DNA of 27,551 bases from an uncultured Candidatus Saccharibacteria bacterium (GTDB taxonomy: Bacteria; Patescibacteriota; Saccharimonadia; Saccharimonadales; AWTP1-31). The notes beneath the pieces were generated by a model, which saw only the letters and a list, made by a program, of their open reading frames with translations, made no database searches and was not told where the DNA came from. The translations under genes were made by a program, and so were the position numbers. The stretch covers positions 1 through 27,551 of the forward strand of contig CAYXHO010000002.1 of assembly GCA_964465215.1 (NCBI GenBank), in the 5' to 3' direction. The stretch's first letter is position 1. The number at the start of each line of letters is the position of its first letter. Below, one piece after another: positions 15,796 to 19,693 of this stretch.

Positions 15796-16329
15796 ATGGC
15801 CCAAAAACAAACTGTTAATGATGTTAACCCTGCATTATGCGAACGTGCCCCAATAGATGTTGGGAGCGACATAGTTATGACTACAGACAATTTCGATGAA
15901 CTAAGACTCCGGATTAGCGAAGAGGCTATAATTCGTTATAATAATTCTTCAGTAGTCTTTAAACGTGATAGATGGGTAGAGAAGCATCCCTTAGTCATAC
16001 CGGTTTTTCAACTTTGGGGATCGGCCGGAGAGCTACCAATCGTTGACGCTGTTCCTGCTGGTCATTCAAGTCGAATTGGCTATGCGACAGCCTGTATTGC
16101 CGCACTACATACACATAATCTTTCACCCGAAAAACTGGATGTACTTGAACAGTTTAGTTACCGCTCCCTCAGGCGTGCTTGCAAAAGTCCAGCAATCCGA
16201 AACAAATTTGAGTATTTTGATGATGATAATGATTTCAAGTTATTAAATCAGCGTCTAGAAAGAGATACTAAACTCTCTCGGATTATACAGTGGGACGGAG
16301 CCGGCACCTGGCTACCTGTTAACTTATAA
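15796..16329 (+). CDS. Hypothetical protein (orphan)
   Basis: 177-aa ORF with its own promoter and strong SD; no family recognised. Confidence 0.7.
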   Translation: MAQKQTVNDVNPALCERAPIDVGSDIVMTTDNFDELRLRISEEAIIRYNNSSVVFKRDRWVEKHPLVIPVFQLWGSAGELPIVDAVPAGHSSRIGYATACIAALHTHNLSPEKLDVLEQFSYRSLRRACKSPAIRNKFEYFDDDNDFKLLNQRLERDTKLSRIIQWDGAGTWLPVNL

Positions 16330-16351
16330 AACAATAGTCGGTCATTATGCT

Positions 16352-16436
16352 TGGTGCGCGAGAAAGGACTTGAACCTTCACGCCTTGCGGCACTAGCTCC
16401 TAAGGCTAGCGTGTCTACCAATTCCACCACTCGCGC
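16352..16436 (-). tRNA. tRNA-Leu, anticodon TAG, CCA encoded
   Basis: Acceptor GCGCGAG/CTCGCGC plus A-CCA, D-arm TGGTGGAATTGGTAGACA, anticodon arm CTAGC-CTTAGGA-GCTAG, long variable arm, T-arm GAAGG-TTCAAGT-CCTTT. Confidence 0.98.
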
Positions 16437-16498
16437 ATAAGTAGTATGAGACGTATGTCATTCTACCATAACACCTTACGACAGCCAATATGCACGAG

Positions 16499-17185
16499 CT
16501 AACGAGTGGCGAGTTCTTTGTAGCGTAACGCGGGCATTAAGGCAGTTATAACTGTAGCCATCAGTGACACAACTTGTCCGGCAATACCGAATACCGAAAA
16601 AGAAGGAATGAGCACGCAGGCAAATAGCAATCCGTACATTGTCCAGATTGGACGCCACTGACCTTTAGTCATAGCAAAACTACTACGCAAAGATTCAAGT
16701 ACTCCGACGTTTTTATCGGCCATGACAAATGGTGCCATTGAAAGGCGAGTAAATACCCAAACAGAGGGCAAGATAAATGCGACAAAACCGAGCAGTATCC
16801 CAAGTCCCATCGCTAGTTGCAGTACAAGCAATGGGAAAAACTGATTTCTTGTAGCTTCCCACAGCGAAAACGCTGAAACACTGCGTTTACGAATAATGGC
16901 TATTTGTAACTGAAGTTGCATAACCTGAAAGACCATCAGCAGAATTAGGAAGGCAATGGTAATCTGGAGATTTAATCCAAAAATTGACTCCATTATTAGA
17001 CGAAGATTTACTGGTTGGCCTTTTTCAAGTACAAAATTGCGACCATGCAATACACTTACCAAACTCAAAATAGATGTTAGTGCATACACTCCAACAACGG
17101 GACGGATATGAGCTTTGATAAGCTCCCAGCTTTTGGCCAGCAGTTCGGTAGCCGGCATATACTGCTTAGTATGTGTGTGTTTCAT
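16499..17185 (-). CDS. Integral membrane protein, resembling YciC/UPF0259/DUF975-type proteins
   Basis: About 5-6 hydrophobic segments; LLAKSWELIK and RLSMAPFVMADKNVGVLESLRSSFAMTKGQW patterns; SD AAGGAG. Family assignment is from memory of the pattern only. Confidence 0.75.
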   Translation of the reverse strand: MKHTHTKQYMPATELLAKSWELIKAHIRPVVGVYALTSILSLVSVLHGRNFVLEKGQPVNLRLIMESIFGLNLQITIAFLILLMVFQVMQLQLQIAIIRKRSVSAFSLWEATRNQFFPLLVLQLAMGLGILLGFVAFILPSVWVFTRLSMAPFVMADKNVGVLESLRSSFAMTKGQWRPIWTMYGLLFACVLIPSFSVFGIAGQVVSLMATVITALMPALRYKELATR

Positions 17186-17237
17186 GAATTCTCCTTAACA
17201 GCATTATGACCGAATAAAGCATTGAATGAAATAGAAG

Positions 17238-17266
17238 TTGCGTTGTAAGTACGTTTATGTTTTACT
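17238..17266 (+). promoter_or_regulatory. Putative promoter of the his leader/hisGE unit
   Basis: TTGCGT (17238-17243), 17 nt, TTTACT (17261-17266) preceded by TG-n; 6 nt before leader ATG 17273. Confidence 0.5.
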
Positions 17267-17272
17267 AGCACT

Positions 17273-17326
17273 ATGATTTTAGTTAGTCAATTACACGTAC
17301 ATATCCGGCCGGATCGTCTCGGTTAG
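17273..17326 (+). CDS. Putative histidine leader peptide MILVSQLHVHIRPDRLG (17 aa)
   Basis: ATG 17273 to TAG 17326, with His codons CAC (17294-17296) and CAT (17300-17302). It sits directly upstream of an antiterminator/terminator pair and hisG. Confidence 0.75.
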   Translation: MILVSQLHVHIRPDRLG

Positions 17327-17359
17327 CTTTGTATTTGTTTTTGCAAACTACGCCGGGGC
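17316..17359 (+). promoter_or_regulatory. Antiterminator hairpin of the attenuator
   Basis: GTCTCGGTTAG (17316-17326) pairs with CTACGCCGGGGC (17348-17359), with G-U pairs and one bulge. The helix continues as TTTGTA (17328-17333) with TGCAAA (17342-17347) and sequesters the 5' arm of the terminator. Folded by eye. Confidence 0.65.
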
Positions 17360-17381
17360 AACCCCGGCGTTTTTTATTTTT
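17350..17381 (+). terminator. Intrinsic terminator (attenuator) upstream of hisG
   Basis: ACGCCGGGG-CAA-CCCCGGCGT is a perfect 9-bp stem followed by TTTTTATTTTT, on the sense strand 35 nt before the hisG ATG. Confidence 0.9.
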
Positions 17382-17415
17382 GTTAACAATTTACTAACTA
17401 TTACAAGGAAAAACT

Positions 17416-18367
17416 ATGAACTATATACCAGGAAATTACTCGGCGGCAGAAATCGTGCGAGCTGGACAAACTATTGCACTACCTAAAGGAAGGGAGACAG
17501 AAGGCGTAGCCGAATGGCTCACCAACATTGGTCTTACCCTGCCGGACTTTGAACGGAGGTGTCTTCACCGTAACTGCACAAAATCGAACTTTCTACCGCT
17601 CGCGAGGTAAAGATATACCCGAAGAGGTTCTAAGAGGAATTGCAGATGTTGGATTTTGCGGCAGTGATGTATTTAACGAGGGATACTTGGCTGGAAAATT
17701 CAAAACTCTAGGCTTTAAAGCTATTACCGGGGCAGGATGTGATTTGGTTCTAGCAGGAAAACCATCTCTCAATTTGCGAAAACCGCTAAGAATTGCAACG
17801 AGCTATCCGCTGCAGGCAATCAAATATTGCATGCAAAGGGGCTATACTATCGATTTGCAAGCTTTAACTGAGTTTGGTGGCGGCATAGAAGGCAAGTTAG
17901 TCTCGGATGCATTCAACGCTATTGTCGATCTTCGGAGCTCTGGCGAAACACTGCGTGACAATGGTCTTGAAGTATTCGACTGCTTTGACACCATCCAATC
18001 CGGCGTCGTCTATAAGCAGCAACCGACTGATTGTGCCGACCTACTTGTGGATCCTTGGCGAATATACGCTGAGGCACAGACTTTGCAAAATCGCTATCAG
18101 CAAGCTCAAATGGCCACAGAAATACCTACTCGTAAATCAACCATACAACTACTCATGGATGGGAATAAACGACGAAAGAATCTTGGTGAAGAAGCTGCCG
18201 AATTAGTTACCGCAGATGCACTTGGCATTGATATCGCAACCGAAGTTGCCGATGTTTCTTTTGCTACCAAGGTTATTGGTTTGGCAAATGGTATTTCACC
18301 TATCCGAGCACTTAACGAAGAGCTACTGCGTAATTCTGTACCTGATTTACCGAATCTACCATGTTAA
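17416..18367 (+). CDS. hisG: Short-form ATP phosphoribosyltransferase (HisG) fused to a phosphoribosyl-ATP pyrophosphatase (HisE)-like domain; split into two frames joined by a putative +1 programmed frameshift at 17563-17569
   Basis: Frame 1 (17416-17610) has IALPKGR. The +1 frame has RGKDIP, GIADVGFCGSDVFNE, RIATSYP and AIVDLRSSGETLRDNGL, then HisE-like KNLGEEAAE...EVAD. Joining after Leu50 (CTT) into ACC 17567 gives 316 aa. A pseudogene or sequencing error cannot be excluded from one sequence. Confidence 0.8.
17555..17569 (+). promoter_or_regulatory. Putative +1 ribosomal frameshift signal GGAGG-TGT-CTT-CAC-C
   Basis: Internal SD-like GGAGG 3 nt before an in-frame CTT, as in prfB (AGGGGG-UAU-CUU-UGA-C). 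The A-site codon is His CAC. Confidence 0.7.
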
Positions 18368-18373
18368 ATAGAG

Positions 18374-18385
18374 TACAATAGGAGC
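18374..18385 (+). promoter_or_regulatory. Possible internal -10 (TACAAT) and SD (AGGAG) for hisS
   Basis: TACAAT 18374-18379 lies 9 nt before ATG 18389; AGGAG follows immediately. Confidence 0.5.
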
Positions 18386-18388
18386 TAT

Positions 18389-19693
18389 ATGTCACTATCT
18401 ACACAACCCTATAAAGGGGCCCGGGATTTCTACCCGGAAGATCAACGATTACAAAACTATATCATCCGCACGTGGAGCAAGGTGCTAGAGCAATTTGGCT
18501 ATGAAGCGTACAACGCTCCGATGCTAGAAAGCATTGATTTATATAAGGCCAAGTCAGGTCAGGAGATAGTCAACGAACAAACCTACACCTTTACCGATCG
18601 AGGTGGTCGTGAAGTGGTTATTCGCCCTGAAATGACTCCTTCAGTCAGTCGCATGGTGGCTGCCCGGCGCCAAGAACTTGCCTACCCGCTACGCTGGTAT
18701 AGCATCCCAAACCTCTGGCGCTATGAGCGAGCTCAGCGCGGTCGGCTTCGCGAACACTGGCAACTCAATGCCGACCTATTTGGTGTTGAAGGGTTAGAAG
18801 GTGAGCACGAGATGATCCTCATTTGTGATGCCATTCTAAAAGCATTTAGTGCTTCTCGCGGAATGTACCAGATCAAGATTAATAGCCGTCAGCTGATGGA
18901 TTCAATCATGTTAACCTATTTGGGCCTTAATAAAGCTCAGGCACATGATCTATCTAAGTTAATCGATCGGTTACACAAAATGCCACGAGCCACATTTGTG
19001 GCTGAAGCAGATGCGCTGTTAACGCCCAGCCAAAAGCAAGCCGGTGTGAGCGAACGGCTTTTAGAAGTACTTGACGTTGATAACCTTGCCGATTTACCGG
19101 AAGGTCTGATGGATAATCCAGCTGTATTAGAGTTACAAAAGCTTTTTGACATGCTTGAAGATGGTGGCGTTACTAACGCCGTGTTCGACATTAGTATCAT
19201 GCGTGGTTTCGACTACTATACCGGCGTCGTCTTTGAACTAACCGATACAGACCCAGAAAACAATCGCTCCATGATGGGTGGTGGACGCTACAATGGATTA
19301 GTTGGGTTGTTTGGCGTTGACCCCGTACCAACCATTGGTTTTGGTTGGGGTGATGTCACGATGATAAACTTCCTATCATCACACGATCTTTTGCCAACAC
19401 TGCCCTCAGAAACGGAAGTGTATGCCATCCTTATTGGAGATGTCTACCAGCAAGCCCAGAAGCTACTGGCTGCACTTCGATCTGAAGAATTAACCGTTGC
19501 CGTTGACGCTAGTGACCGAAAAATGAGTGCCAAGCTCAAAAGTGCTGTCAAAAAGAATATCCGTTTTGCTCTCTTTATTGGCGAAAAAGAACTTGCCGAA
19601 GGTCGCTATAACCTTAAAGATCTTCACAGTGAAACAGAGCAAACACTGAGTCCTGAGAGGATTGTCAGCACTGTTTTAGATGTCCGTAAGTAA
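18389..19693 (+). CDS. hisS: Histidine--tRNA ligase
   Basis: PYKGARDFYP, IRPEMTPS, motif 2 RYERAQRGRLREHWQLNAD, RGFDYYTG, GGGRYNGL, GFGWG, and a C-terminal anticodon-binding domain, which argues for HisS rather than HisZ. Confidence 0.95.
   Translation: MSLSTQPYKGARDFYPEDQRLQNYIIRTWSKVLEQFGYEAYNAPMLESIDLYKAKSGQEIVNEQTYTFTDRGGREVVIRPEMTPSVSRMVAARRQELAYPLRWYSIPNLWRYERAQRGRLREHWQLNADLFGVEGLEGEHEMILICDAILKAFSASRGMYQIKINSRQLMDSIMLTYLGLNKAQAHDLSKLIDRLHKMPRATFVAEADALLTPSQKQAGVSERLLEVLDVDNLADLPEGLMDNPAVLELQKLFDMLEDGGVTNAVFDISIMRGFDYYTGVVFELTDTDPENNRSMMGGGRYNGLVGLFGVDPVPTIGFGWGDVTMINFLSSHDLLPTLPSETEVYAILIGDVYQQAQKLLAALRSEELTVAVDASDRKMSAKLKSAVKKNIRFALFIGEKELAEGRYNLKDLHSETEQTLSPERIVSTVLDVRK

Follow-up and report, generated by a model that had tools for sequence, protein, structure and literature searches.

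A conserved, probable +1 frameshift site with a histidine codon in hisG of Saccharibacteria, a candidate switch sensing the charging of tRNA-His

Among the described systems closest to the element analyzed here is the +1 frameshift site of prfB, the gene of release factor 2 (RF2). In this site (SD-UAU-CUU-UGA-C, where SD stands for a Shine-Dalgarno-like element), the internal SD is placed 3 nucleotides before a CUU codon in the P site. As long as the A site is waiting, the Leu-tRNA can slip to UUN; only ribosomes that have shifted make the full-length product, and they do so without the help of a 3' structure. We studied a stretch of 27,551 nucleotides (hereafter the window) from an uncultured Candidatus Saccharibacteria bacterium (assembly GCA_964465215.1, contig CAYXHO010000002.1, positions 1 to 27,551), in which the hisG gene is split between two reading frames at a site with the same internal element, spacing, and P-site codon. 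The slip and the dependence of the full-length product on it are proposed here from the sequence, and no conserved 3' structure was found. We compared the site across 28 distinct loci, partly gathered from a search of 401 genomes of the same Saccharibacteria order and belonging to at least 12 of its GTDB families. The hisG site differs from that of prfB in having a sense codon for histidine in the A site (CAC or CAT, in all loci) instead of UGA. The quantity proposed to be sensed is charged His-tRNA-His, not RF2, and the gene is HisG-like, so that there is no autoregulation of the prfB type. With a sense codon in the A site and a gene other than prfB, the hisG site does not belong to the prfB system.

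Other systems share some of these traits. The yeast sites of Ty1, ABP140, and EST3 (CUU-AGG-C) also have CUU in the P site and a "hungry" sense codon in the A site (PMC5009743). However, they are eukaryotic, lack an SD stimulator, and owe their slowness to a constitutively scarce tRNA and not to how much is available of an amino acid with a link to the function of the gene. In laboratory work on hungry codons, the +1 shift at CUU-NNN competes with the arrival of the aminoacyl-tRNA and is raised by starvation (PMC5009743). These cases are artificial constructs or errors, whereas the hisG arrangement is natural and conserved. Such laboratory frameshifting was reportedly studied by Gallant, and Curran and Yarus are said to have used reporters of the RF2 site with sense codons. 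The level of a metabolite also sets the efficiency of the +1 frameshift of antizyme, where it is that of polyamines and the transframe product is the effector; this eukaryotic site has UGA in the A site and other stimulators, and the hisG site differs from it in A-site codon, stimulators, and ligand. Finally, the attenuation of his operons and the T-boxes of aminoacyl-tRNA synthetase genes read the charging of tRNA-His, by way of the translating ribosome or of the tRNA itself, and a His leader with a terminator is also present upstream of the split hisG. These systems act on transcription termination, whereas the hisG frameshift would act on the reading frame within the coding sequence, and the leader of the his operon has 7 His codons in a row where the one upstream of the split hisG has 2-3.

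A 2016 review states, concerning starvation-specific transframe proteins produced through hungry codons, that "no examples are known" (PMC5009743). In full-text searches of the literature, we came across no programmed frameshift described for hisG or ATP phosphoribosyltransferase, nor for Saccharibacteria/Patescibacteria. A preliminary description of this DNA, made from its letters, knew of no amino-acid biosynthesis gene controlled in such a way. The slippage machinery is familiar; the novelty lies in the input (the supply of a single aminoacyl-tRNA) and in the gene family and lineage concerned. Judged from sequence comparisons, the hisG site is a strong candidate for being the first frameshift switch found in nature that senses amino acid supply. 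If this is true, the locus would fill a gap, as a natural hungry-codon case that makes a starvation-specific transframe protein.

The preliminary description placed the break of hisG at CGG-AGG-TGT-CTT-CAC, and the frames confirm it, except that its start coordinate was off by one (Table 1). It also had unshifted translation ending at the TAA of 17610 after 64 amino acids, which is indeed the extent of the first open reading frame (ORF1). The +1 frame is open from 17528 to its stop at 18365-18367. Once C17566 is skipped, the two parts form a protein of 316 amino acids with the junction at residues 50/51. The proposal that a +1 slip on CTT rebuilds a continuous HisG holds for this protein, which matches the hisG profile TIGR00070 with 101.2 bits (cutoff 75.75) over residues 19-188, thus spanning the junction, and aligns across the junction with solved HisG chains. 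The Pfam matches in the +1 frame, HisG with 77 bits and PRA-PH (PF01503) with 28.1 bits (cutoff 21.3), are both above cutoff. The AlphaFold2 model of the joined protein is a single HisG + HisE chain with a mean predicted local distance difference test (pLDDT) score of 93.3, and has the junction at the start of strand 51-54. The downstream frame by itself (ORF2) lacks the first strand and helix of HisG. The gene needs a +1 shift between CTT and ACC.

Table 1. Coordinates of the split hisG gene, its putative frameshift elements, and the surrounding features in the window.
Feature	Position	Strand	Remarks
0-frame codons CGG AGG TGT CTT CAC CGT	17554-17571	+	sequence and frames read directly
0-frame part of the gene	17416..17565	+	codons 1-50, HisG N-terminus with IALPKGR strand, last codon Leu CTT
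ORF1	ATG 17416 to TAA 17608-17610	+	64 codons
SD-like GGAGGTG	17555..17561	+	putative internal stimulator, core 3 nucleotides 5' of the P-site codon; complementary to the 16S 3' tail
GGAGG core	17555-17559	+	read directly
TGT spacer	17560-17562	+	
Slippery P-site codon CTT	17563..17565	+	Leu-tRNA(GAG) able to re-pair on TTC 17564-17566
0-frame A-site His codon CAC	17566..17568	+	proposed gate; skipped base would be C17566
0-frame tail	17569..17610	+	14 codons including the His codon 17566-17568, ends with TAA; product without shift
+1-frame part of the gene	17567..18367	+	266 codons + stop, rest of HisG catalytic core + HisE (PRA-PH) domain
HisE (PRA-PH) domain	~18125-18307	+	Pfam PRA-PH match
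Leader ORF	17273..17326	+	17 codons, His codons CAC 17294-17296 and CAT 17300-17302, stop TAG 17324-17326
Intrinsic terminator	17351..17379	+	8-bp GC stem (17351-17358 with 17362-17369), then T run; RNAalifold consensus
hisS, histidyl-tRNA synthetase	18389..19693	+	TIGR00442 332 bits, above cutoff
tRNA-Leu(TAG)	16352-16436	-	just upstream of the UPF0259-like gene
UPF0259-like membrane protein gene	16499-17185		divergent

The elements around the break are conserved among the 28 loci. Counting from the C of CTT as position 0, the bases T, T, C, and A at +1 to +4 are invariant. The P-site codon is CTT in 27 loci and GTT in the remaining one (position 0 is C or G). The 0-frame A-site codon is always a His codon, CAC in 24 loci and CAT in 4, never CAR (+5 is C or T). 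Upstream, G-A-G-G occupies -7 to -4 in 26 loci. The purine block takes the form of GGAGG (17 loci), GAGG (5), AAGGAG (2), GAAAGG (1), or AAGAGG (1), and two loci have weak blocks. The spacer between the purine block and the P-site codon is of 3 nucleotides. These blocks are complementary to the 3' tail of the 16S rRNA, ..GGAUUACCUCCUUUCU, read in one genome of the same family and one of the same order, and the SD-like element is complementary to the tail ..ACCUCCUUUCU as read in two relatives of the window's genome. The lone GAAAGG variant pairs with the CCUUUC end of the tail. The anatomy likened to that of prfB by the preliminary description (SD, 3 nucleotides, CUU, A-site codon) is present. 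So is the means of re-pairing in the window's genome: it has a gene for tRNA-Leu(GAG), which had been suggested to re-pair on UUC, and the anticodon would do so through G.U, A-U, and G-C pairs.

The energies of the SD/anti-SD duplexes are between -8 and -14 kcal/mol in most loci. Three of the four loci with CAT, the His codon read by wobble (L063, L066, L073, and L065), have the weakest duplexes, -5.7 to -6.9 kcal/mol, which may represent a trade-off between the slowness of the A site and the strength of the SD. One locus (L073, genome G265) has GTT (Val) in the P site, with poor +1 re-pairing, and still has the AAGAGG SD-like block, CAT, the leader, and hisS.

The choice of codons at the site is unusual. 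The Arg codon is AGG in 26 of 28 loci and AGG is the rarest Arg codon of the genome (4.7%), while CTT is one of six evenly used Leu codons and yet is near-fixed at the site. A conserved Arg found a few codons downstream of the site is encoded by several different codons among the same sequences. The choice of AGG and CTT thus points to selection at the nucleotide level. Any of the four bases can follow CAC among relatives, all of them silent for the Thr of the +1 frame (ACN), the first +1-frame codon being ATC where the His codon is CAT. Upstream, TGT is changed to TGC in L030, which is silent in frame 0. The 0-frame tails after the His codon, of 2-14 codons, are unconserved among relatives. 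From these patterns, the coding frame switches exactly at the site. We found no conserved 3' stimulatory structure: downstream folding z-scores are around 0, and the only consensus pairing, a GGUG/CACC stem of 4 bp, is trivial and would be covered by the ribosome.

The motif GGAGG-N3-CTT-CAY has a single occurrence in the whole genome of the window (778 kb in 96 contigs, 94% complete; both strands searched). In-frame CTT-CAY without the SD context has 53 occurrences in other genes of this genome, so the heptamer alone is not avoided. There is a second in-frame CTT-C inside ORF2 at 17929-17935 (CTT CGG, in the PRPP-loop codons D-L-R, codon 172, where PRPP stands for phosphoribosyl pyrophosphate). 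It has no preceding SD-like block and is presumably inert.

The frame break is old and both parts of the gene are maintained. The protein search with ORF2 gave 13 relatives at 45-100% identity, all annotated as short proteins (167-277 amino acids) and none with ~316 amino acids. The profile of ORF1 retrieved 15 small proteins, the window's own included, each ending with R-[CR]-L-H and a short tail. One site variant is present on 22 contigs from different sequencing runs, another on 8 contigs, and the exact ORF1 of the window on 3 contigs. The ratio of non-synonymous to synonymous substitution rates (dN/dS) is 0.04-0.19 for the 50 0-frame codons (six pairs of relatives, a seventh being saturated at synonymous sites) and 0.006-0.14 for the +1-frame part (three computable pairs); synonymous sites are saturated in most pairs. 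Both halves of the split hisG are under purifying selection. In the HisG tree, the frameshift loci form one group (support 91/82) with long internal branches, and the site was thus retained over deep divergence. We conclude from these comparisons that the split hisG should be neither an assembly error nor a pseudogene. In the public records that we found, the split genes are in every case called as two fragments or as a truncated HisG.

The break and the nucleotide motif are both present in every relative down to ~30% identity. The preliminary description had held that relatives with an in-frame gene lacking the motif would contradict a programmed shift. Such genes exist among distant relatives only, at ~30-38% identity or less, and not among close ones. 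They are found in other families of the order (L005, L006, L068, and L077) and are linked to hisS where the flank was read (L005 and L006). P0037 (222 amino acids), an in-frame HisG-only relative at 38% identity, has ..N-R-C-Y-T-Y-K.. where the frameshift genes have ..R-R-C-L|T.., and may be a revertant or a sister form. Another distant protein begins with ..GGVFI.., consistent with the CAT variant. Further scans did not extend the group. The scan of genome contigs gave no frameshift loci beyond two already known, and ordinary HisG from other phyla that were taken as outgroups. In metagenome contigs, the protein pattern gave no relative and the DNA pattern gave 7 chance matches with no HisG among them.

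Given these elements, we consider it very likely that hisG contains a programmed ribosomal +1 frameshift. The ribosome would translate 50 His-free codons and arrive with its P site occupied by Leu-tRNA(GAG), paired to CUU, and with CAC as the A-site codon. At this point, GGAGG(UG), 3 nucleotides upstream, would pair with the tail of the 16S rRNA, as the SD-like element of the RF2 site does, the short spacer straining the helix during the wait for His-tRNA. With a prompt arrival of His-tRNA-His, CAC would be decoded and translation would stop 2-14 codons further on, leaving a useless N-terminal fragment. If the A site remains empty, Leu-tRNA(GAG) would slip from CUU to UUC, Thr-tRNA on ACC would fix the new frame, and the ribosome would finish the 316-residue HisG(short)-HisE, a product that needs no histidine. 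In this way, the site would turn the scarcity of charged tRNA-His into the synthesis of an enzyme. The putative attenuator in the leader would raise the transcription of the operon, hisS included, under the same shortage of His-tRNA, and the frameshift would then restrict the enzyme to real shortage. We infer that the frameshifting takes place on the ribosome and at a rate that rises as His-tRNA falls. The latter is a clear prediction for a compact cassette (~15 nucleotides) that comes with 28 natural variants.

If the shift does occur, it probably responds to the supply of histidine. That the putative sensed element is the His codon is suggested by five observations: the codon itself in the A site, the His-free product, the leader, hisS, and the tRNAs. 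The transframe protein has no His in 25 loci and a single one in the other 3. In the window, CAC is the only His codon on the way to the 316-residue product. As the transframe protein is nearly His-free, the ribosome meets hardly any His codon besides the gate, and none in most loci. In comparison, 16 short HisG proteins from other phyla hold 2-6 His each. The proteome of the window's genome is 2.2% His, and just 9 of its 451 proteins of at least 200 amino acids are His-free. In the four CAT loci, the change turns the +1-frame residue from Thr to Ile, while His is retained in a 0 frame whose continuation is unconserved. The residue matching the junction Thr is variable in the in-frame homologues (K, T, S, I, or R). 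Only one gene for tRNA-His(GTG) was found in the genome. The RelA/SpoT synthetase domain (PF04607) was not found in five of the frameshift genomes (G000, G009, G019, G180, and G199, 90-98% complete) and, for this reason, ribosome-based sensing may be the main way these genomes have of reading tRNA charging. We hold with moderate confidence the whole reading, i.e., a programmed +1 shift gated by charged tRNA-His.

The main rival is a programmed shift that is constitutive. It would give a fixed low yield of HisG-HisE relative to hisS, independently of His-tRNA, and the His codon would be kept by the slippage context, by the residue in the +1 frame, or by descent. We find it unlikely, and yet several observations weigh against a histidine gate, some of them in favor of this rival. 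An SD and CUU drive +1 shifting on their own account in prfB. CAC is common, with 41% of the His codons in the genome, so that basal shifting may be low and the slowness would have to come from a limitation of histidine or of charging. Changes between CAC and CAT are few, the C-to-T change at +5 being a transition in few lineages, and the loci are not independent, since they are related sequences sharing the history depicted in the HisG tree. CAY could also be held partly by constraints other than the sensing of His, C at +3 being the best base for re-pairing with the anticodon GAG. Moreover, the in-frame homologues linked to hisS in other families are equally His-free (as counted in L005 and L006; L007, where hisG adjoins hisD, also has 0 His). 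This means that the lack of His predates the frameshift and is not specific to it.

Other observations concern the shift itself or its use. Re-pairing is poor in the locus with GTT as P-site codon, and the SD is weak in two loci. The genome's own prfB lies in one open frame of 384 amino acids (G000:C16:11830-12870, - strand) and has no RF2 frameshift; it thus provides no evidence from within the genome that its ribosomes shift at sites of this kind. The metagenome-assembled genome (MAG) of the window has no assembled 16S rRNA, and the tail was taken from relatives instead. Finally, the regulatory logic has no known pay-off, since these genomes lack the rest of the histidine pathway.

A fixed throttle, however, could use any slow codon, for example the rare AGG, and yet the codon is His in all 28 loci, including where CAT alters the protein. 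With a constitutive shift, the His-free product, the His leader, and the hisS neighbor would all be coincidences. An indel of one nucleotide would restore the frame, and yet the break persists across at least 12 families.

The remaining explanations fare worse. ORF1 and an ORF2 initiated internally at GGAGG could be two polypeptides assembling into a split HisG. There is a strong SD directly before the ORF2 frame and gene callers annotate two ORFs in every assembly, but the starts they pick vary from locus to locus. The preliminary description saw no in-frame start that GGAGG could serve, and in fact there is no ATG, GTG, or TTG within 20 nucleotides downstream in any frame; the sole CTG in this range, at 17574, is in the third frame. 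In relatives, the codons after the SD in the ORF2 frame are GGT GTC TTC ACN, with no ATG, GTG, or TTG at a usable distance. The invariance of CTT-CAY plays no part in initiation, and the break lies at the start of a beta-strand within a continuous and confidently modelled domain. We regard internal initiation as very unlikely. Even more improbable is the correction of the frame by transcriptional slippage, RNA editing, or a -2 shift instead of a +1 slip of the tRNA on CUU. Transcript slippage is known in reduced endosymbiont genomes, including in a histidine biosynthetic gene (PMC5009743), but it needs long homopolymer runs and there is no such run at the site, the longest being TT. The elements that are conserved (SD at 3 nucleotides, CUU, slow A-site codon) belong to +1 shifting on the ribosome, and there is no conserved downstream structure. 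A pseudogene, or an assembly or sequencing error, might be suspected because the frame is broken by a single base and the MAG represents a reduced genome lacking the pathway, or because of the extra break between HisG and HisE in L036, but is barely credible given the same break in independent assemblies and 28 distinct sequences, the low dN/dS on both sides, the intact catalytic motifs, the confident fold, and the lack of a homopolymer. We have rejected internal initiation, pseudogene, assembly error, and transcript slippage on the basis of start codons, conservation, dN/dS, fold, and absence of homopolymers.

The transframe protein is, as far as sequence profiles and the structural model can tell, a bona fide HisG(short) + HisE. 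The top Foldseek matches are HisG(S) chains of HisZG complexes, with TM-scores of 0.74-0.77 and root-mean-square deviations of 2.2-3 A in the best-fitting chains, and the fold matches HisG(S) of P. arcticus, L. lactis, and T. maritima. The PRPP loop, D-x-G-x-x-G-x-D, and the HisE acidic motifs GEExxE and ExAD (relatives) are kept. The HisE domain scores above cutoff with PF01503 and below it with TIGR03188 (22.8 bits for a cutoff of 42.7). The protein differs from the HisG(S) of HisZG by the fusion to HisE, the absence of HisZ (a true histidyl-tRNA synthetase, HisRS, is the neighbor), the absence of the pathway, and the near absence of His. A few loci depart from the HisG-HisE form. L036 / L056 (genome G400) have a stop codon between HisG and HisE, with ORFs of 173 and 70 amino acids, which is either a natural two-gene form or decay. 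HisG occurs without HisE in L004, L059, L067, and L073.

The preliminary description regarded the frameshift as the control of an amino-acid biosynthesis gene, and this part of it is not supported. HisA/F, HisD, HisI (PRA-CH), and IGPD were not found in G000, G009, and G019 (90-94% complete), whereas the same searches matched all 14 control genomes. HisA/F was absent from all 18 frameshift genomes searched for it. Across the order, strong HisA/F matches were restricted to seven genomes, five of which also have a canonical in-frame hisG, close beside HisA/F where both positions are listed. In L007, hisG adjoins hisD. In view of these missing enzymes, we regard HisG(short)-HisE as an orphan and not as the first step of a biosynthesis, with no HisZ, allosteric domain, or downstream enzymes. 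By its chemistry, it would turn ATP and PRPP into phosphoribosyl-AMP (PR-AMP). Instead of serving biosynthesis, the enzyme might be an effector that acts as a signal, as a metabolic brake, or as the maker of an intermediate for the host. We speculate on roles as a starvation signal, an ATP/PRPP brake, a partner of HisRS in place of HisZ, or a source of an intermediate for the host. For an enzyme that is unregulated and consumes ATP and PRPP, it would make sense to have its expression tightly controlled at two levels. We lean slightly towards the idea that the charging of tRNA-His is read as a choice of frame, and that the His-free HisG-HisE is an effector of histidine starvation stacked under the His leader attenuator. 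The locus raises a metabolic question, since an epibiont without the histidine pathway keeps its first two steps, apparently gated by the supply of histidine and tied to its only HisRS.

The preliminary description mentioned an attenuator, and upstream of hisG there is a conserved leader with His codons and a terminator. A homologous leader peptide is present in 20 of 28 loci, and most of the others lack upstream sequence. The leaders have 17-23 codons with the consensus ..Q-[LH]-H-x-H-[IT]-x-P-E-x-x-G-stop, the His codons being arranged as H-x-H or HH-x-H. RNAalifold gives the terminator as a consensus hairpin shared by 14 loci, and its stem shows compensatory changes such as UGCCGG..CCGGCA in L034. 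The Rfam scan of positions 16300-18500 at a permissive E-value identified a tRNA-Leu only, with no T-box or other riboswitch in the leader. In the consensus fold of the leader, only a small hairpin forms where the leader ORF ends, and no antiterminator pairing was established. The leader has a CGCCGG segment identical to the 5' arm of the terminator, with which it could compete for pairing to the 3' arm.

Downstream, hisS starts 21 nucleotides after the stop of HisG-HisE. It is present in 25 of the 28 loci, the contig ending too early in the remaining three. Each genome has a single HisRS-like gene, which scores as a true hisS, and no HisZ. The gene order UPF0259 / leader / hisG-hisE / hisS / tig is conserved in many relatives.

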